Of a DNA stretch of 64,000 nucleotides, positions 1,566 to 63,592 are shown piece after piece. How positions within the stretch are numbered: position 1 is the first letter of the stretch; every line of letters begins with the position of its first letter. Location of the stretch: positions 1-64,000 of the IMG/VR virus record IMGVR_UViG_3300034198_015569. One strand, 5' to 3'. Source of the DNA: a virus. The notes below the pieces were generated by a model. It made no database searches. It was not told where the DNA came from and saw only the letters and a list, made by a program, of their open reading frames with translations. The position numbers and the translations under genes were made by a program.

Positions 1566-2699
1566 TAATGACTACCTTTACTTTGAAAGTAAAATCTTTT
1601 CTTAAATGGCACGTTATTCTCAATTCGTGTGATGTGTTAGAGGCCGAAACTCCTTTTGGTTGTTATTATATCCTAGCACACAATAACCAGTATTTCTGGA
1701 AGTTCGGAGGTACGCCAACGGCGCCAGTGTACACAACGAAGGGAAATGATTCGCTTAATGAAGTTTATCGGGAGACACAAGAAGATTACCAAAAGCGTGT
1801 GGATGCGTTGATTTCACAAAGCGAAAGCATCTTTCTTAAGAAGGAAAATTAATATGTCAAACGATTATCAGTTGCCCGAAAATACTGAAACGACTCTCTA
1901 CGTATTGATGAATTATTTTCATTCATACACTATGAATGAACTTTTGATCATTGCCCAAAATAAATGGGGCGAAGATATTGACTTTGATAAGCTCAAGATC
2001 GGTTCTGAATATAAACAAATTGCAAACTTCGGTTATCGCGGATATGATCCTATGGACTACACAACTTTTATTACTTTGGAGTATGAAGGATGAATGAAAC
2101 TCGTTTGAAGCTTGAAGGTTTGGTCGCGATCTTTAATAAGGTTCGCGATGAACGTTTCACTCGTCCTGCGGCTGTTGTGCTTGGTCCAAAGGGATGGCAT
2201 ATCGAGTTTATTGCGGAACGTTCCTGCGATACGCGAAAACATGAATCCAATATCTATCCAAACAATGAACTTGCCATACTTAATTTTGTTGAAAGAATTG
2301 AAAAGCTGGAAAAGCTTCGTGATGAACAGAAGCGCATGGAAGTGTTTCGTGATTGGTGTACCAAGAATTTGTCTAGTAATGAATTGATTATTCTTGGTTT
2401 GAAGGATCGTGATGAACATCTTCCGACCTTCGCGGATACCATCAAAAAGATTCCAAAGGATATTTTACCAAAAGGTTTGGGAGGTATGGGATATGATTAA
2501 GTTCTATGCAGATGATTCAAATTTTGATATGATGCTTGGTCAGTTCTTGTTCTTTAAGGGAATGAAAAAAGTGGCTGACTTTCGGAGGCCGAAGCGATAT
2601 TGCTCCAAGAGTAAATATCAGCCTCATCAGAATCGAAAAGAAAAATATAGACGCCGGAAGCAATTCTATAAAAACAATGAACGACTTTTAAATTCATAA
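1562..2699 (+). other. run of short hypothetical phage genes (1562-1852, 1854-2093, 2090-2500, ~2493-2699)
   Basis: Co-oriented, abutting or overlapping start/stop codons, SD-like motifs. Confidence 0.6.
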
Positions 2700-2801
2700 A
2701 AATAAATTATGAGGTAAAAATGCAAGCAGCTATTTTACATCAAGATGATTGACTTTTGCCTCATATGTTATATTATTAAGTAAATATGAAGGAGAAACCT
2801 T

Positions 2802-3899
2802 ATGATCATCAATAATCACGCACAGCATATTATGAAAGTTATTGAAGACGCTGGCTATCAGGCTCGTGTCTGCGGTGGCGCTGTGCGTGATTATGTCATG
2901 GGAAATGAGCCTAAAGATTGGGACATTGCAACTACCGCTCTCCCTGAAAAGGTGATGAAGCTTTTTCCGCATACAATTCCAACTGGCCTTCAGCACGGTA
3001 CGGTTTCCGTGGTCATTGAAAATGAAGTATTTGAAGTGACCACGCTTCGAAAGGACGTGGAAACGGACGGGCGCCATGCTGTTGTGGAATTCACGGACAA
3101 TTGGAGGACCGATGCCCTTCGCCGGGATTTTACCATGAATGCCATGTACATGGATATTAATCGTAATCTTTATGATTACTTCGGCGGCGTGAATGACATT
3201 ACCAATGGAGTTATTCGCTTCGTTGGAAACGCTGCTGATCGAATCAAGGAAGACTATTTGCGCATCCTGCGGTACTTCCGTTTTATGTCTCGATATGACA
3301 TGGATAATGCAGATATCGAAACCCTAGTTGCCATCAGAGAAAATGTGATGGGATTGGAAAAGATTTCTGTTGAACGTATTTGGAGTGAGATTAAGAAGAT
3401 TTATTCTTATCATCAAAATATCCATAATATTACTCAACTAATGAACATGTGTGAAGTGTGGAAGGGTGTGGGTATGAAAAACCGCATGTTTTCTGCCGCA
3501 TCTTCTTCAAATGATTACAAGTATAATAGTCCTCTAATGAATGCCTTTTTGCCGATTATTTTTGAGCTTGATACGCTCAAGGAACAGTGGAAGCTTTCAA
3601 TTGATGAAAAGAATAAATATGAAATCATCATAGAGATTGCCAAGCAAAAGAGTGTTGAAGATATTATCTATCTTGCCTATCAGAAGGAAGAAAACGTCCG
3701 CTGGTATCTTGGGCATGATTCTGTCTTTGATCCTGGCAAGGTTGGTGAGGCTGCTAGGTGGCTTCGCAATAATCCTGTGCTGCCGTCTTTCCCCTTCAAT
3801 GGTGATACACTGAAGACCGAAGGATTTGCCGGGAAGAAGCTGGGCGATGAACTGAAGCGCCGCAAGCTGGAATATATAAAGACGATGGTTAATGGGTAA
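2802..3899 (+). CDS. cca: CCA tRNA nucleotidyltransferase (class II)
   Basis: GGAVRD, DWDIAT, EVTTLRKD..TDGRHA, DALRRDFTMNA, RIKEDYLRILRYFRF and ERIWSE motifs. Confidence 0.93.
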   Translation: MIINNHAQHIMKVIEDAGYQARVCGGAVRDYVMGNEPKDWDIATTALPEKVMKLFPHTIPTGLQHGTVSVVIENEVFEVTTLRKDVETDGRHAVVEFTDNWRTDALRRDFTMNAMYMDINRNLYDYFGGVNDITNGVIRFVGNAADRIKEDYLRILRYFRFMSRYDMDNADIETLVAIRENVMGLEKISVERIWSEIKKIYSYHQNIHNITQLMNMCEVWKGVGMKNRMFSAASSSNDYKYNSPLMNAFLPIIFELDTLKEQWKLSIDEKNKYEIIIEIAKQKSVEDIIYLAYQKEENVRWYLGHDSVFDPGKVGEAARWLRNNPVLPSFPFNGDTLKTEGFAGKKLGDELKRRKLEYIKTMVNG

Positions 3900-24155: not shown

Positions 24156-25440
24156 GGAGAATAAAATATGTCAAATTATTGGGTCTATAATCAATATAAA
24201 GGAATTTTTGATTCTGAAAGACTTGGTTGGATTGATGGAATTCGTTTTGTAATAAACGATATCGATGCATCTCATGATCGGGGATACAATGACGATTCTC
24301 CTTACGCTCATGGCTTTGATAGAGCTATTGAAGCATTCGACGGAAAGATTAATTCTTTGTGGTTGTTCGGTCATTATCACAAATCTTTTAAGATGAACAT
24401 TTATGGTACTGAATTCATCTGTCTCGCCGAATTGGAGTATCTAGATATTGAATTGTGAGGAATAATGAAGGTTTATCGAGTTGAATTGCCATGTGGAGGC
24501 GGGCCTTTTCGATCCGCCACCTGCGCATTTGTTGGTGTTGGAAAAAATAATCATCCATATCCTGATGATGAAGGAATAGATTTTGAATATAAACATGTTT
24601 TTGGATGCCAGTCATTAAGGGATATTTATGGATGGTTCGGTCATCGAATACCACACCTTATGGATAATGGATTTGCTATTTCTGTTTATGATGTAAAGAA
24701 AGCACGAGTGGGAGGAACACAAGTTGCTTTTGATCGTAAACATGCCAAATTGAAGAAAAGAATTTCTCTCTCTAAAATGGCTAAAGTAAAATATATTAGA
24801 GAATATCTAGATAGAGGAATTGTGAAAAATGTCGCCTGATGAAAAATATAAAAAAGAATATGCAAAGGATGACTACAAACGTCTAGTTGAATTGTTTAGA
24901 AGAATTCATTCCGAAACGATGGTTTGGGAACTTTCAAATCAAAAGCAAGTGGATTCTTTTAAGGCTATTCAGAAGTGGTCAACAGAAGCCATTTCTCTTC
25001 TTCGCCCGCATGACAATCCTTCAGATGAAGAAAAGAAGATTGCATACGATCTTCTTAAGATTGCTTTGTTAGATATTGAAGAAACAAAACATAACGGTTT
25101 TAGAACTGAATATTGGACCTCTGAAGCAAAGAGATTGTATAATGTCAAAGAAAAATAAACACCATAAGTTGGAAATATGCAATTATAATGGAGAAATTAG
25201 TTCATTATATTTGAATGATTATAGAATTTCTGGCCCGAAGCCTTACGGTGGTGGAATTATTGTTAAGAATTTCAAAGTTACAAATAAAGATTTACTTAGT
25301 TCAATTCCTGAATACCAAAAAGTTTTAGATGTTTTAAAAATGGCCTTGAAGGAACACGATTATAAGTGTACAATGCAAGTCACTTTTACAGAACCTCAAT
25401 GGGTTCATGAAGCACGGGCCATTATTAAAGAAATCGAGGA

Positions 25441-26541
25441 TTGAATATGGGCAAAGAAAAGATTAAGTCCTACGAAGATGCAGTAATGGCTTATGTGATC
25501 AAGAATCATGGTGAAGCTCTGGCTAGCTGCATCCAAGACCCTGTGTATCATGCTGAAGGTAGCGTGTGGACGCATACGGTTCGTGTTTTGGAAGAAGTAA
25601 AGAAAATCTCTTCTCCTTCTGAAATGGAAACAATGGCTGTTGCTGCAATTCTTCATGATATTGCTAAGCCCGGCACTCGTGAAGAATACTTTGACGAATC
25701 TATGGGTAGGGTTCGTGTGAGCCACAAGCATCATGCCAAGCTTGGTGCCATCGATGCATGGAACATCATGTGGAAGCTCGGCCTGCCTCTCCAGATGCGT
25801 CTTGACGTGTACGCAATTATCCTCTGGCATCAAAAGGTTTTCCATACTTTCTATAAGAAGAAAGAAAAGATGGAAGAGGAGTTTGTTCGCTTCTCCATCA
25901 TTGGTAATTGGGATCAACTGATTCGCTTTGCGCTGGCTGACACTCGTGGTCGAGACAATGTGAATAATGATGATACTGAAGATACCCTTGCGGCTTTGAC
26001 TGAAGCTGTGAAGGAATTTGGTGTGTTTGATTATTCATATCCTTTCGAAACGCCAAATCATCGAATCACGGCTCTTGAAAGCAAGAATCGCTTTTATGTG
26101 CCCATCGATCCTCCTGGCGGTGTGATGCATATCATGAGCGGTCCTCCCGGTTCTGGTAAGGATACTTTTATCGAAAAGAATCTTCCTTATCCTGTTGTGT
26201 CTTTGGATTCTGTTCGTGGCGAGCTTGGTATTAAGCCTGATGGAAATCAGGGAAGGGTTATTCAGGAAGCACAAAAGCGTGTGAAGGAATATCTCGCCGC
26301 AAAGGAAACCTTTGTTCTTAATATCACTGGCCTGCGTAAGGAGACCCGTGACAAGTGGACAACCCTTGCTCGTGATTATCATGCGTTCATTTCTTTTCAT
26401 TGTATGAATACACCTTATGACAAGGCTGTAATTCAGAATACAAATCGAAAAGATTCTGTACCGCAGAATGCATGGGATAAGATGGTTTCTAAGTGGGAGC
26501 CTGTCACTCTGGAGGAAGGACATTTTGTTGAGTGGGTGTAA
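25441..26541 (+). CDS. HD-domain phosphohydrolase fused to a P-loop polynucleotide-kinase-like domain
   Basis: YHAEGSVWTHT, LHDIAK, ADTRGR, then GPPGSGKDT Walker A and SLDSVR. Confidence 0.85.
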   Translation: MNMGKEKIKSYEDAVMAYVIKNHGEALASCIQDPVYHAEGSVWTHTVRVLEEVKKISSPSEMETMAVAAILHDIAKPGTREEYFDESMGRVRVSHKHHAKLGAIDAWNIMWKLGLPLQMRLDVYAIILWHQKVFHTFYKKKEKMEEEFVRFSIIGNWDQLIRFALADTRGRDNVNNDDTEDTLAALTEAVKEFGVFDYSYPFETPNHRITALESKNRFYVPIDPPGGVMHIMSGPPGSGKDTFIEKNLPYPVVSLDSVRGELGIKPDGNQGRVIQEAQKRVKEYLAAKETFVLNITGLRKETRDKWTTLARDYHAFISFHCMNTPYDKAVIQNTNRKDSVPQNAWDKMVSKWEPVTLEEGHFVEWV

Positions 26542-27157
26542 AAACCCACTTGACAGTTTAATTTAAAATATATAATCTCTAATCATCGAAGTTCAATCCA
26601 AATAGGAGAATTTAAAAATGGCTGGTGAGAACGTTATCGAAGTCCTGAACGGTCCTCGTATGTCGGTGCGGATTATCAAGAACATCGTGGGAAAGTTCAT
26701 CGTTCAGTATGAATATCGCAAGGCCAAGCCGGGAATTCCGGCGCAGTGGAAGGCTCATTGGCGTGATCGTGAACATTGCTATACGTACGACGACATGAAG
26801 CCTGCCAAGGCTATGATGAAGGCCATTCACAAGCGAAATAACTGATAATGAAAATCAGTTCAAGAATTCCTATTCAGTTTCTTCATGGTGAGAAACTGAT
26901 TTCCACCAATCTCAATCATTCTTTCGCCATCTCGTGTAAGATGATTGAGATTGAGGAGGAAGTAATTACGGATGGAAAGAAGAAGAAATCTAAGGTTTCG
27001 CAACCTGCATTTACTTTGTATTTCTATTCACACGTTCCCGGTAACTTTGAAATTGTAACGTCAACCAAGACCCATCAAATCGAAGTTCTCGCTTGACTTT
27101 AGGGCAGCAATGCCCTATTGTCGGTTTTTGTTTTTGTAGTTTTAATGAAAGTGAGTT

Positions 27158-37243: not shown

Positions 37244-37318
37244 GCGGTTGTAGCTCAATGGTAGAGCAGGGCCTTCTAAACGCCATGGTAGTGGGTTCGA
37301 ATCCCACCTACCGCACCA
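37244..37318 (+). tRNA. tRNA with CTA anticodon (putative amber suppressor)
   Basis: Canonical D and T arms; best register GGGCC-TTCTAAA-CGCCA (3 central pairs); an Arg(TCT) register pairs worse. Confidence 0.6.
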
Positions 37319-59100: not shown

Positions 59101-59490
59101 ATGAACGTTAATCAAAAAGGAGTTAAGGGTTTAATCAAAATTATAGACCATTTAACAGATAAAAGCTGGTATTGTTTTCCAGCTTTTGATGATCATTCTC
59201 CAGTTGACTTGATAATTATGAATGAAGCTGGTAAGCTTATGAAACTCCAGATAAAATATAGGAGTCGCATACAAAGGTTCGTATCAGAAAGATATGAACT
59301 ACAAGCATCTTCCGTTGTCAACGGAAAACGAGTAGATATCAACAGGATTTTAATAGATGGTTGGGGTGTGTATCTTGAGGAAGCACAAAAAGTAGTTTTC
59401 ATCCATAAAAATTATTTAATTAATAAAAAAAGTTTTATTATTAATCCTAATATAAATTACTTATCTTTGGAAGAATGGCCGAGTGGTTGA
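59101..59490 (+). CDS. PD-(D/E)XK endonuclease-like protein
   Basis: KG..G...F...DDHSPVDLI.....KLQIKY; 3' end runs into tRNA-Ser. Confidence 0.65.
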   Translation: MNVNQKGVKGLIKIIDHLTDKSWYCFPAFDDHSPVDLIIMNEAGKLMKLQIKYRSRIQRFVSERYELQASSVVNGKRVDINRILIDGWGVYLEEAQKVVFIHKNYLINKKSFIINPNINYLSLEEWPSG

Positions 59491-59556
59491 TGGCGCTCCT
59501 TTGCTAAAGGAGTGTACGTAACAGTACCATGGGTTCGAATCCCATTTCTTCCGCCA
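59469..59556 (+). tRNA. tRNA-Ser(GCT)
   Basis: CTCCT-TTGCTAA-AGGAG; long variable arm; canonical T-arm; GCCA end. Confidence 0.9.
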
Positions 59557-59630
59557 AAATTCAAGTATAAAACCTGTTGACAACTCACTTCTTCGTGATA
59601 TACTTAGATAATGAACAATAAGAGAGATTA

Positions 59631-60167
59631 ATGACAGTATTTGTAACATCCGATACGCATTTTGGACATAAACGCATAATTGAACTTTGTAATCGTCCAT
59701 TTCCTTTAGAAGATAAAACTTTCGAAATGGATGAAGTTCTAATCAAAAACTGGAATGCTAAAGTCCGACCCAATGACACAATTTATCATTTGGGCGATTA
59801 TACCTATCATTATGATTCTGATTATCTCAGAGAACAGTTTGATAGGTTGAACGGACACAAATTCCTAATTGAAGGCAACCATGATCCCGCATACGTGAAG
59901 AATCTTCCGTGGGATGGTGTCTTTAAATACCAAGAAATTAAATACAATAAGAAAGTTTTTGTTCTTTTCCACTATCCGATTCTGGAATGGAATGGGTTTC
60001 ACAGAAACAAAGATGAATTGGTCTATATTCATTTACATGGACACATTCATTCGACTCCTTTAGACTCTAAATACCCGAAAATTCGGGGACGAATGGATGT
60101 AGGTGTTGATGCCAATGGTTTCACACCACTATCATTGGATGAAGTTATTCGATCCGTCGAATACTAA
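59631..60167 (+). CDS. calcineurin-like metallophosphoesterase
   Basis: SDTHFGH, HLGD, GNHD, HYP, HGHIH, DVGVD. Confidence 0.9.
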   Translation: MTVFVTSDTHFGHKRIIELCNRPFPLEDKTFEMDEVLIKNWNAKVRPNDTIYHLGDYTYHYDSDYLREQFDRLNGHKFLIEGNHDPAYVKNLPWDGVFKYQEIKYNKKVFVLFHYPILEWNGFHRNKDELVYIHLHGHIHSTPLDSKYPKIRGRMDVGVDANGFTPLSLDEVIRSVEY

Positions 60168-61052: not shown

Positions 61053-61100
61053 AGAACGATTTCAGCACTTAAACGCTTGGTATGCAAAAAAGTCGTTCTG
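61053..61100 (+). ncRNA. stem-RNA unit 1 (cargo: GC-TTGGTAT-GC mini-loop)
   Basis: AGAACGATTTCAGCA...AAGTCGTTCTG; late promoter TATAAATA at 61012. Confidence 0.65.
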
Positions 61101-61121
61101 TTAAACAAAAGGAATATTTAA

Positions 61122-62537
61122 ATGAATACTTTCGCACGTAATGTAGCATCAAACGTTGGTGCCTCTTCTCCTAAGATTGCTAAGACCCGCACTGAAAATG
61201 GTGCAGTTGCTTACACTTCATCCGGCAAGGCCAATCTTGATTTGTTTGCTGCAATTGGCGCAGCCCGCTCCCGTGATCTAACCAATGATTTCAAGGCGGC
61301 TCTTAATGAGAATCCTGAATTGGCAACACGTATCCTTCTATGGGCTCGTGATTGTCGTGGTGGTGCTGGTGAACGTTCAACCCCTCGCAAGCTTCTAGCT
61401 GTGCTTGAGACTGTAGACGTTGAACTAGCAGAGAAGGTGCTTCGTAAGCTACCAGAACTTGGCCGTTGGGATGACCTTCTAGATAGCGTTAAGACCCCTC
61501 GCCTTCGTGAGATTGGTTTCGGCCTAATCCGTGACGCTTTGGCGGCTGGTAACGGTCTGTGCGCAAAGTGGATGCCACGTAAGGGTGATGAGGCTATCCA
61601 GCTTCGTTCATTCCTTGGTTGGTCTCCTAAGCGTTACCGTAAGACCCTGGTTTCACTAACCAAGGTTGTAGAACAGCAAATGTCTGCTAAGCAGTGGAGT
61701 GAGATTAAGTATCAATCCGTTCCTTCTGTTGCCATGGCACGCTCGATGAAGGCTTTCAGCCGTAACGATACTGTTCGTTTTGGCGAATACTTAAATAGAG
61801 TAAAAAAGGGCGAAACAAAGATTAATGCCTCTGTGGTATTCCCACATGACATTATTCGCTCTCTAAAGAGCGGACAAACTGCCGGTGCGGATGCTCAATG
61901 GAATGCATTGCCTGATTTTGTTGCATCGGACGAAAACTTTCTTCCAATTTGTGACGTATCAGGATCAATGAGTGTAGCTGTATCGGGTACGGTTTCTGCA
62001 CTAGACGTTTGTCTTGGTCTTGGTCTGTATCTTTCAGAACGTGGTAAAGGTGCCTTTAAGGATATCTTTATGACTTTCTCTGCCCGCCCAACTCTTCAGA
62101 AGGTAAGTGGTTCACTAAGTGAACGTATGAACCAAATGAATCGTGGTGCTTGGGATATGAACACGGACATGGAAGCTGCATTTAATGCTGTACTAGATCA
62201 CGGTATTAAGTACAAAGTTCCGCAGGCAGATATGCCAACCACACTTATTGTCTTCTCCGATATGGAGTTTGATCAGTGTATTCGTAATGGAAATGATACC
62301 ATCTATCGCAATATGCGTAAGCGTTTTGCTGATGCTGGTTACAATGTTCCTAAGGTTGTGTTTTGGAATCTTAATTCCAGAAATAAGCAGTTCCCTGTAA
62401 CTGCAAAAGACCCAAACACTGCACTAGTGTCAGGCTTCAACCCAATTCTTGTTAAGAATCTTCTTGGCAAGGCGAATATCACTCCAGAACAAGTAATGCT
62501 TGACACTGTCATGGTAGAGCGTTATAATCTAGATTGA
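61122..62537 (+). CDS. Ro60/TROVE-like protein with C-terminal vWA (DUF2828-like)
   Basis: TENGAVAY..SG..LDLF, WARDCRGGAGER, GRWDDL, AKWMPR, Y.SVPSVAM, MIDAS DVSGSM, FSDMEFD, VVFWNL, LVSGF. Confidence 0.85.
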   Translation: MNTFARNVASNVGASSPKIAKTRTENGAVAYTSSGKANLDLFAAIGAARSRDLTNDFKAALNENPELATRILLWARDCRGGAGERSTPRKLLAVLETVDVELAEKVLRKLPELGRWDDLLDSVKTPRLREIGFGLIRDALAAGNGLCAKWMPRKGDEAIQLRSFLGWSPKRYRKTLVSLTKVVEQQMSAKQWSEIKYQSVPSVAMARSMKAFSRNDTVRFGEYLNRVKKGETKINASVVFPHDIIRSLKSGQTAGADAQWNALPDFVASDENFLPICDVSGSMSVAVSGTVSALDVCLGLGLYLSERGKGAFKDIFMTFSARPTLQKVSGSLSERMNQMNRGAWDMNTDMEAAFNAVLDHGIKYKVPQADMPTTLIVFSDMEFDQCIRNGNDTIYRNMRKRFADAGYNVPKVVFWNLNSRNKQFPVTAKDPNTALVSGFNPILVKNLLGKANITPEQVMLDTVMVERYNLD

Positions 62538-62538
62538 G

Positions 62539-62563
62539 AGTAGGGGATTCGTTCCCTACTTTC
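62539..62563 (+). terminator. hairpin after the Ro60-like gene
   Basis: AGTAGGGGA-TTCG-TTCCCTACT followed by TT. Confidence 0.65.
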
Positions 62564-62572
62564 CTTAAGTTT

Positions 62573-62632
62573 AGGGCAATTTCAGCAAACATTTTAAATT
62601 TTTCTTTGTACGAAAAACTAAAAGTTGCCCTG
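62573..62632 (+). ncRNA. stem-RNA unit 2 (cargo: anticodon-like stem-loop, TGT)
   Basis: AGGGCAATTTCAGCAA...TTTTTC-TTTGTAC-GAAAAA...AAGTTGCCCTG. Confidence 0.7.
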
Positions 62633-62638
62633 TAATTA

Positions 62639-62702
62639 AGAACAATTTCAGCAAGTATTTAATACTTTTCCGCCAACAATTGGAAAATAAAACGTTGTTC
62701 TG
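62639..62702 (+). ncRNA. stem-RNA unit 3 (cargo: permuted acceptor minihelix with GCCA)
   Basis: AGAACAATTTCAGCAA...TTTTCC-GCCA-ACAATT-GGAAAA...GTTGTTCTG. Confidence 0.65.
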
Positions 62703-62720
62703 TTAAAATAAAGGATTATT

Positions 62721-62975
62721 ATGAATTTAGATGATGTTACTGCTGGTAATATGCGAACACTTTCCGAAAGATCGCTTCTTACTTTAAAAGAGGATGAATT
62801 TAGGAAAATTCGAAATCTTATTCATAATGCGGCAAATTCTGGTGCATATTATATTCAATGTGATATAAAGTATCCAGAAACAGAGAATATGTTAAAAGAT
62901 TTAGGTTTTAAGTTTAAAATTATGACCTTTAATAAAGATGTTACCACGTATAAAATTACATGGTGGATTGATTAA
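62721..62975 (+). CDS. small hypothetical protein embedded in the RNA array
   Basis: 84 aa with AAGGA SD. Confidence 0.7.
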   Translation: MNLDDVTAGNMRTLSERSLLTLKEDEFRKIRNLIHNAANSGAYYIQCDIKYPETENMLKDLGFKFKIMTFNKDVTTYKITWWID

Positions 62976-62981
62976 GAATTG

Positions 62982-63105
62982 AGAACCATTTCAGCAAATT
63001 TACTTTTATTTGCCTACGAAGCAAAAGGTGTCGGTTCGAGCCCGGCCCACCACACCAACTATGTGGTGGTAGTTTAATTGGATAGAACTTTATAAGGTGG
63101 TTCTG
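62982..63105 (+). ncRNA. stem-RNA unit 4 carrying a circularly permuted tRNA-Arg(ACG)
   Basis: AGAACCATTTCAGCAA...anticodon arm, T-arm, 3' acceptor + ACCA, linker, 5' acceptor, D-arm...GTGGTTCTG. Confidence 0.8.
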
Positions 63106-63122
63106 ATAAAAGATTAGAATTA

Positions 63123-63178
63123 AGAACGATTTCAGCAACTTAAAAATTTCACTGTTAATGAAAACCAAAGTCGTTCTG
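63123..63178 (+). ncRNA. stem-RNA unit 5 (cargo: anticodon stem-loop, GTT)
   Basis: AGAACGATTTCAGCAA...TTTCA-CTGTTAA-TGAAA...AAGTCGTTCTG. Confidence 0.75.
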
Positions 63179-63187
63179 ATAAAATTT

Positions 63188-63297
63188 AGGATATTTTCAG
63201 CAATCTAAATTTCAAACAATGTAACATGGGTTCGAATCCCATACATTCGAAAGAATGTTAGCCAAGTGGTAAGGCAATTGTCAAAAAAGTTATCCTG
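63188..63297 (+). ncRNA. stem-RNA unit 6, YrlA-like tRNA mimic
   Basis: T-arm ATGGG-TTCGAAT-CCCAT, closed acceptor ACATTC-GAAA-GAATGT, D-arm GCC-AAGTGGTAA-GGC, all inside the AGGATA/TATCCT stem. Confidence 0.8.
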
Positions 63298-63425
63298 TTA
63301 AAATTATGGGCAAGACCCGAAATTCTTATGCGTCGGGAGATATTACAAGCGTGTTAATGGGGGCTATGTAATAATTAAATTTCCGGTTGACAAAAAATTA
63401 ACTTGGTGTATAAATAATAGAATAT

Positions 63426-63500
63426 TGCTGGCGGGAGGTTTAGAATCTCATTGGTCTCATAAACCAAAGAACTGGTGCAAATCCATGGCTTCAGCAACCA
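63426..63500 (+). tRNA. tRNA-Met(CAT), atypical
   Basis: TTGGT-CTCATAA-ACCAA; ends CAGCAACCA; T-arm irregular. Confidence 0.62.
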
Positions 63501-63506
63501 ATTTAA

Positions 63507-63592
63507 TGCGGGGACAAGCCGGAGTGGCTAACTAGCCTCATAAGCTAGAGATTAATTTCTAATGGAATGTGCAACTCATTCCCCCGCAACCA
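63507..63592 (+). tRNA. tRNA-Met(CAT), fMet-like acceptor, long variable arm
   Basis: TGCGGG.../CCCGCAACCA; CTAGC-CTCATAA-GCTAG; T-loop TGCAACT. Confidence 0.65.

Follow-up and report, generated by a model that had tools for sequence, protein, structure and literature searches.

Small RNAs with tRNA-part heads beside a phage Ro60-fold gene: probable Y-RNA-like partners and candidate baits for tRNA-directed proteins

A stretch of 64,000 nucleotides (nt) of viral DNA (IMG/VR record IMGVR_UViG_3300034198_015569, positions 1 to 64,000; hereafter the window) carries a gene for a predicted Ro60-fold protein at 61122-62537. Before and behind that gene lie copies of a short, structured, largely non-coding unit. 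These units are very probably Y-RNA-like partner RNAs of the protein. Their variable heads are isolated parts of transfer RNA (tRNA), either an anticodon hairpin, an acceptor end or an elbow. Taking the two together, we lean towards reading the units as Ro-partner RNAs whose tRNA-part heads serve as baits. A preliminary description of positions 62573-63178, made from the letters alone, had pointed to isolated anticodon stem-loops and an acceptor minihelix and had read them as minimal substrates or decoys for defence toxins. Its structural claim holds and generalises to related phages. It missed the Ro60-fold partner, the Y-RNA-like family and the YrlA-like organisation of units 4 and 6.

The interval 62573-63178 contains one 84-aa open reading frame (ORF) and is otherwise non-coding, with a short scaffold repeated along it (Table 1). 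Six scaffold copies lie in the window and a seventh lies 1.7 kb past its end. In the scaffold, a closing stem of 7 bp is combined with a UUUCAGCAA core and with a 3' strand rich in A. From 5' to 3', a unit runs through a 7-nt arm, the core TTTCAGCAA (in unit 1, TTTCAGCAC in its place), a variable head, a stretch rich in A, the arm's exact complement, a G and then T or A. In the resulting handle the UUUCAGCAA strand stands opposite the A-rich strand, and the stem ends in ...CCU/G-U. The shared scaffold of the preliminary description is real: TTTCAGCAA occurs eight times in the window against 1.48 expected, with five of the eight on the plus strand between 62580 and 63203, and each scaffold copy of the core is preceded by a 7-nt arm, with the complement of that arm closing the unit.

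Table 1. Units, partner gene and flanking signals; R1 is the covariance model described in the text.
Feature	Position	Strand	Description
Unit 1	61053..61099	+	arms AGAACGA/TCGTTCT, core TTTCAGCAC, head GC-TTGGTAT-GC (61075-61085); R1 52.9 bits, E 4.7e-9
Ro60-fold gene	61122..62537	+	471 aa; predicted helical-repeat ring and vWA domain with D-x-S-x-S
Promoter-like site	62500..62528	+	TTGACA-17-TATAAT, sigma-70-type consensus, 12/12 matches; just before the downstream array (unit 2 onward); consensus match only
Terminator-like hairpin	62536..62563	+	between the stop of the Ro-like ORF and unit 2
Unit 2	62573..62631	+	arms AGGGCAA/TTGCCCT, core TTTCAGCAA; R1 54.2 bits
Unit 3	62639..62701	+	arms AGAACAA/TTGTTCT; R1 64.3 bits
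84-aa ORF	62721..62975	+	between units 3 and 4; weak Pfam Translat_reg match (phage translational regulator family), E 0.036
Unit 4	62982..63104	+	arms AGAACCA/TGGTTCT; R1 matched the 5' part only, 18.5 bits, E 0.18
Unit 5	63123..63177	+	arms AGAACGA/TCGTTCT; R1 68.3 bits, E 1.8e-12
Unit 6	63187..63297	+	arms TAGGATA/TATCCTG; recognised by exact core and complementary arms
Unit 7	contig 65667-65801		outside the window, same contig; R1 42.4 bits; T arm, CCCAAT-closed acceptor stem, D arm

The short heads resemble single tRNA parts. In unit 5, TTTCA (63147-63151) and TGAAA (63159-63163) form a 5-bp stem around the loop CTGTTAA (63152-63158), exactly as had been reported, and the same loop is found in both tRNA-Asn genes of the phage. 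The Thr-UGU-like hairpin of unit 2 is likewise where it had been placed. It has a 6-bp stem, TTTTTC (62599-62604) and GAAAAA (62612-62617), and a 7-nt loop, TTTGTAC (62605-62611), to be compared with TTTGTAA in the phage's tRNA-Thr(UGU). The GC-TTGGTAT-GC motif of unit 1 exists and its stem is only 2 bp long, as had been said, but it sits upstream of the Ro-like ORF and not in the interval to which it had been assigned. The loop of the phage's tRNA-Thr(GGU) is TTGGTAA. These three loops match loops of the phage's tRNA-Thr and tRNA-Asn, identities that are also encoded as full phage tRNAs. The head of unit 3 (62666-62687) consists of TTTTCC (62666-62671), GCCA (62672-62675), the linker ACAATT and GGAAAA (62682-62687). 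It had been likened to the end of the phage's tRNA-Ser, which does read TTCCGCCA at 59549-59556. We consider this head a closed acceptor-stem mimic with NCCA in its loop, a stand-alone version of the closed acceptor stem found in the larger units.

The head of unit 4 is a circularly permuted mimic of a whole tRNA. A 5-bp hairpin with an Arg-type 7-nt loop (TTTGC-CTACGAA-GCAAA, 63009-63025; triplet ACG) comes first, followed by a T arm (63030-63046), the acceptor 3' strand with A and CCA (63047-63057), a 5-nt linker, the acceptor 5' strand (63063-63069) and a D arm (63072-63088). Unit 6 has the YrlA order of T arm (63226-63242), GAAA-closed acceptor stem (63243-63258) and D arm (63261-63275), set on a 5-bp stem (ACAAT/ATTGT). 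The module of T arm, closed acceptor stem and D arm is present in units 4, 6 and 7 and is not found in units 1, 2, 3 and 5. Against Rfam, the YrlA model gave 28.7 bits (E 0.0043) for unit 4 and 25.2 bits (E 0.044) for unit 6, both below the gathering score of 69, and did not match units 1, 2, 3 and 5. The Rfam tRNA model gave 25.2 bits for unit 4, also below its threshold of 29. ARAGORN called no tRNA at 60.9-64 kb. The units in the window lack the finder call, the continuous cloverleaf and the free acceptor end of a decoding tRNA, and the arm order of unit 4 is permuted. Matches of units 2 and 5 to the Rfam family 'Dictyostelium class I RNA' (19.7 and 24.3 bits; gathering score 41.5) were treated as chance. 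A megablast of 61100-63400 against phage records returned no match. The public sequencing runs listed as containing the stretch are four DNA runs from two studies, with no RNA run among them.

The units belong to an RNA family that is found in many phages. We took 80 viral loci encoding relatives of the partner protein (45-49% identical) and built a covariance model, R1, seeded with four short units of the window and seven short units of these loci, the outer stem being the sole structure given. Both strands of the window and of the 80 loci were searched at E<=1. This resulted in 102 matches in 63 of the 81 sources, all on the strand of the gene; 18 of the 80 loci had no match. The 98 matches within the loci are distributed as 73 upstream of the gene, 25 downstream and none inside it, with up to five units per locus. 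A match ends within 150 nt of the gene in 41/80 loci, often about 18 nt before it. A cargo-blind pattern (arm, core, complementary arm, G) matched 125 times on the gene strand versus twice on the other. It was used instead of a looser scaffold pattern, which was too noisy (247 plus-strand and 112 minus-strand matches). In five complete genomes (wV8, P100, CPX, SEP9 and LeBron; 518 kb), 10/10 matches (E<=0.1) share the strand of the gene and are no more than about 1.2 kb away from it. The units are therefore less than 4 kb from a Ro gene and on its strand, which is where Y RNAs are sought (PMC4201824).

The closing stem covaries. It is paired in 99.8% of 455 cells, with compensatory changes in 7/7 pairs and 149 double-change cells against 36.7±5.8 (0/500 shuffles reach the observed score), although these counts lean towards structure because R1 was seeded with window units and the alignment (A4) was fitted to the model. 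Control stems, slid from the true position, pair in 31-45% of cells. The conserved core of the family is (U/A)U(U/A)C(A/C)GCAA. Rfam 15 has no family for the scaffold, and a literature search whose coverage excluded most subscription journals found no description of this RNA family.

The preliminary description had proposed that homologous units be examined for enrichment of anticodon-type 7-nt loops, and they are enriched. In minimum-energy folds, 62 short heads form 20 seven-nt loops against 3.1±1.7 in 300 shuffles (maximum 10) and 16 Y-U-N-N-N-R-N loops against 0.19±0.42 (maximum 2), and the cargo-blind set has the anticodon-loop pattern in 15/53 short heads against 1.07±0.99 (1000 shuffles, maximum 4); since the units are related from phage to phage, the heads are not independent events. 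The homologues thus clearly do not show loops of random length and composition and, with the loops enriched, we consider the heads to be tRNA parts. The triplet at the anticodon position varies within a fixed loop frame. Among 23 distinct hairpins it is TGT in five, TTT in three, TGA in three, TCC in two and each of ten others once. Heads of the Thr-UGU, Lys-UUU/CUU and Asn-GUU types are common across the family, and U36-A-A-U-C occurs in 8/23 distinct hairpins. When all 83 distinct units found by the model are sorted by head, 19 have a 7-nt Y-U-NNN-R-N hairpin only, 22 have a T arm and 42 have another head. The T-arm units divide into 11 with the permuted YrlA order and 11 with another order, including whole D-anticodon-T cloverleaves. 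(N)CCA opens the closing loop in 7/13 closed acceptor stems of permuted units; in unit 6 and several others the stem is closed by GAAA or another CCA-less loop.

The protein encoded beside the units matches Pfam DUF7788 (E 2.3e-50), Pfam DUF2828 (E 9.6e-33) and PHROG 850, 'RNA-binding protein' (E 2.8e-147). Pfam TROVE does not match it even at E<=10. Against PDB sequences, phmmer found nothing relevant, and a profile search gave only E 0.028 to the TROVE protein of Thermus phage phiLo, over 42 residues. We built an AlphaFold2 model from 30 homologues (pLDDT 80.9, pTM 0.79). Its best 13 Foldseek matches in the PDB are all to Ro60/TROVE proteins, over the full length (459-568 aligned columns, TM 0.37-0.65), and come from phiLo, Xenopus, Deinococcus and human, with the phiLo protein in first place (E 1.2e-8, TM 0.59). 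The MIDAS motif residues D278, S280, G281 and S282 are invariant in the 30 aligned homologues. Because of the full-length Foldseek matches to Ro60, the invariant vWA residues and the lack of a TROVE match, the protein as modelled is a divergent Ro60-fold ring that is recognisable by structure only.

By tblastn, the partner protein is present in 711/50,697 phage records, in all cases at <60% identity. These records include Felix O1-like coliphages, T4-like Aeromonas and Vibrio phages and Listeria P100/A511-like phages, as well as Campylobacter, staphylococcal, enterococcal, Bacillus and mycobacterial phages. The homologue of the Listeria phage CKA15 is reported from purified virions (20 peptides, 57.1% coverage; PMC12282133), and overexpression of LeBron gp53 is reported to be moderately toxic (PMC13148394). 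CKA15 has three highly transcribed non-coding regions, which we considered as evidence for expression of the units. The region CKA15_059-061 is described as the most abundant phage transcript, and its authors suggested that it may be a Y RNA (PMC12282133). We found it to be a ROOL RNA instead (record ~26,195-26,746; RF03087, 90.1 bits, E 2e-18; the gathering score, 99.1, is narrowly missed). The Ro-type units of CKA15 are at record 25,282-25,556, ~700 nt nearer the Ro-like gene than the ROOL match. Since the top region is ROOL and the units are elsewhere, what is reported in PMC12282133 is not direct evidence for the units.

How such units might work is suggested by Ro60 and its Y RNAs, in which the paired ends are reported to dock on the ring and the second module, which in bacterial YrlA mimics a tRNA, to engage further proteins (PMC4201824, PMC12135203). 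By analogy, the array would be transcribed from its own strong promoter or jointly with the gene, the transcript may be cut into single units, and the conserved handle would dock on the Ro-like ring. The ribonucleoprotein could then present its tRNA parts as baits to tRNA-recognising proteins. The likeliest role of such baits would be to sequester or distract host tRNA-directed defence nucleases, beside the replacement tRNAs that the phage itself encodes. A function of the heads as anti-nuclease decoys is a tentative proposal, which we judge possible but short of probable. The PARIS nuclease AriB is reported to target the tRNAs for Lys(UUU), Thr(UGU) and Asn(GUU) and to cut after U36AAUC, before A41 (PMC12409363). 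The decoy idea fits because the frequent Thr-UGU, Lys-UUU/CUU and Asn-GUU heads and the hairpins with U36AAUC match the targets and the cleavage site of AriB, and because the heads in the window share identities with tRNAs that the phage also encodes in full. The tRNA-Lys nuclease PrrC may be another target.

Several observations weigh against reading the units as Ro-partner baits. On the protein side there is the missing TROVE match. On the RNA side, the canonical Ro-binding motif GNCGAA/CGAA is absent from the units, R1 did not report unit 6 at E<=10 and matched only part of unit 4, and the pair counts lean in the direction stated above. Folding energies of single sequences are only modestly better than those of shuffles (z -1.8 to -2.8). 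The heads neither anticodon-like nor of the T-arm module make up about half of the distinct units (42/83), the 7-nt loops of coliphage wV8 are without U33, and the GC/GC pair of unit 1 may be the outer stem of its homologues and not an anticodon stem. Cleavage by AriB is reported to need contacts with the D loop as well (PMC12409363), so a bare hairpin would at best be bound, not cut. The commonest anticodon-type unit is located in the leader of the gene, which also fits regulation in cis. Finally, repair genes are not conserved neighbours in the 80 loci (phosphoesterase in 10/80, RNA ligase in 2/80 and RtcB in 0/80).

The alternative that survives best is a canonical Y-RNA role without any decoying, though we think it rather unlikely. 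The handle would dock on the ring and the heads would tether the ring to host exoribonucleases or enzymes that bind tRNA (RNase P, modification enzymes, PNPase). RNAs, the many tRNAs of the phage among them, would in this way be steered to degradation, quality control or repair. The Ro60 fold, the Y-RNA-like architecture and the linkage to the gene fit this equally well. Enzymes that recognise tRNA are reported to use YrlA as a substrate, and a Y RNA is reported to tether Ro60 to PNPase (PMC4201824); the Ro60 of a Thermus phage with its Yrl RNAs is likewise reported in complex with host PNPase (PMC12135203). Genomic neighbours can also be cited in its favour. tRNA genes are found in 32/80 loci, all on the same strand, P100 and CKA15 carry RtcB and a phosphohydrolase ~1-3 kb downstream, and an RNA ligase is encoded 7 kb downstream on the present contig. 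However, such repair genes are not conserved neighbours, and for enzymes that read the elbow of a tRNA, an acceptor stem alone or naked anticodon hairpins of several identities would be poor handles.

A role in cis is improbable. Here the Ro-like protein would control its own translation by way of the unit nearest the gene, acting as a leader or operator, and the other copies would be processing or punctuation signals in the transcripts of tRNA clusters. Its strength is position. Besides the many units close to the gene in related loci, unit 1 of the window is in the leader of the Ro-like gene, ends 22 nt before the ATG and adjoins a Shine-Dalgarno-like AAGGA, and the wV8 units are interspersed with tRNA genes. 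A quarter of the matches in the loci are nevertheless downstream of the gene (25/98), arrays reach five units, and units have promoter-like sites of their own, such as the TTGACA/TATCAT hexamers before the P100 units. An operator or cleavage signal also has no need of elaborate tRNA-part heads that are conserved across distant phages.

Permuted tRNA genes are known from the red alga Cyanidioschyzon, and units of the unit 4 type would resemble these if they matured into decoding tRNAs by removal of the scaffold, ligation of the ends and opening of the acceptor loop at NCCA. In unit 4 the four arms are all present, together with A-CCA and a 7-nt loop of Arg type, the (N)CCA is kept in about half of the closed acceptor stems, and there are RNA ligase genes on the contig. 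Even so, we regard permuted or split tRNA genes as very improbable. Most units lack one or more arms, the short units would yield only tiny hairpins, and unit 6 and several others have acceptor loops without CCA. The tight linkage to a Ro-fold gene would be unexplained, and only 1/78 ARAGORN calls in related loci overlaps a unit. Least probable of all is that the units are decaying tRNA-gene debris or a selfish small repeat without function of its own: the heads look derived from tRNA genes, some keep an encoded CCA and the region is rich in tRNA genes, but the scaffold is kept with compensatory changes across phages whose partner proteins are 31-49% identical, the units keep one strand and a set position with respect to a single gene, and the anticodon triplet changes inside loop frames that are preserved.

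Returning to the units as Ro-partner baits, a more far-reaching version can be formulated, which we hold to be rather doubtful. A Ro60-like ring, possibly carried in the virion and loaded with interchangeable tRNA-part RNAs, would act as a sponge that neutralises several tRNA-cleaving or tRNA-modifying immune effectors at once. If true, this would be a modular RNA-based anti-defence system in hundreds of phages (Felix O1-like, P100/A511-like, Campylobacter, staphylococcal and mycobacterial), its parts being anticodon hairpins (Thr, Lys, Asn, Arg and others), acceptor ends and elbows. The units would also give a function-linked partner to a large protein family that is annotated only as DUF2828/DUF7788 or 'RNA-binding protein' and is encoded by much-used phages, among others. 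The heads split the tRNA into separate parts, and each part predicts a class of tRNA-binding partner. The set of anticodons has members in common with the known targets of phage defences that cleave tRNA, which makes the decoy idea accessible to plating and cleavage assays.

Other features of the neighbourhood are as follows. None of the 80 related loci has a homologue of the 84-aa ORF that separates units 3 and 4, and this ORF is not among the conserved parts of the system. Two cloverleaf-like genes (63424-63500 and 63508-63592) have CUCAUAA (CAU) loops, odd T loops (UGCAAAU and GUGCAAC) and ...GCAACCA ends. ARAGORN did not call them, and the first scores only 18.4 bits against the Rfam tRNA model. 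Just upstream is TTGACA-16-TATAAA (~63386-63413). The two genes may be unusual initiator-type or Ile2-type tRNAs, or further mimics. At 37244-37318 there is a tRNA whose anticodon is CUA (amber suppressor type; labelled 'Pyl' by ARAGORN), and in related loci no other tRNA is called more often near the Ro-like gene (12/78 calls). At 59101-60167 the window encodes a PD-(D/E)XK endonuclease-like ORF, which overlaps the start of the tRNA-Ser gene, and a calcineurin-like phosphoesterase, which is upstream of the Ro-like gene. Further along the contig (~66.1-70.8 kb) are nicotinamide adenine dinucleotide (NAD) salvage genes, namely a nicotinamide mononucleotide (NMN) adenylyltransferase-Nudix fusion and a nicotinamide phosphoribosyltransferase, and then the RNA ligase (PF09414). 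A second, weak ligase-like match is at contig 75889-76296.

Among known systems, the tRNA-Lys, tRNA-Thr and tRNA-Asn variants of phage T5, reported to bypass the tRNA-cleaving defence of PARIS AriB (PMC12409363), are similar to the heads in identity (Thr-UGU, Lys-UUU and Asn-GUU) and in setting a phage RNA against tRNA-directed immunity. The T5 tRNAs are described as full decoding tRNAs that replace the cleaved host tRNAs, whereas the units are non-decoding fragments on a putative protein-binding handle, with a hypothetical role in anti-defence.

The closest likeness is to YrlA and YrlB with Rsr (Rfam RF02553; Chen et al. 2014, PMC4201824). As reported there, these too are small RNAs with paired ends beside a Ro60-type gene, on the same strand and in several copies per locus, with a mimic module of T arm, closed acceptor stem and D arm. 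The handles differ, as the phage units have UUUCAGCAA and YrlA has GNCGAA (given as GNCGAAN0-1G near the 5' end; PMC4201824). YrlA scores of 25-29 bits for units 4 and 6 are also far from the gathering score, and the partner belongs to DUF2828/DUF7788 and not to Pfam TROVE. The phage family includes many bare anticodon hairpins, a bare acceptor stem and whole cloverleaves, none of which is part of YrlA as far as it is described in PMC4201824.

A phage Ro60 ring with adjacent small RNAs is also known from phiLo, with Yrl1 and Yrl2 (PMC12135203; PDB 9KOP, 9L5Y), where the RNAs are reported to be defined by a CGAA motif, unlike the units here. The same arrangement is listed for CcrColossus and the cluster C mycobacteriophages, with YrlA (Table S2, PMC4201824). 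That 2014 survey gives 22 phages, namely Bacillus phage G, CcrColossus and 20 mycobacteriophages with 552-aa Ro proteins (Table S2, PMC4201824); our comparison with the present family covered CcrColossus, at which the survey lists three YrlA genes. At locus 1960-3340 (minus strand) we observed seven tandem repeats starting GGTGGCG(T/C)AG upstream of the CcrColossus TROVE gene, several of them with T-arm modules. BLASTP of the partner protein against CcrColossus gp139 gave a non-significant E of 0.24. R1 has 0 matches beside the TROVE gene, where the repeats begin GGTGGCGTAG instead. Because the CcrColossus TROVE system shares neither protein similarity nor scaffold with the units, we consider the handle of the phage units to be of a second type. 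As this handle differs from that of canonical Y RNAs, Ro-type rings would recognise more than one RNA code.

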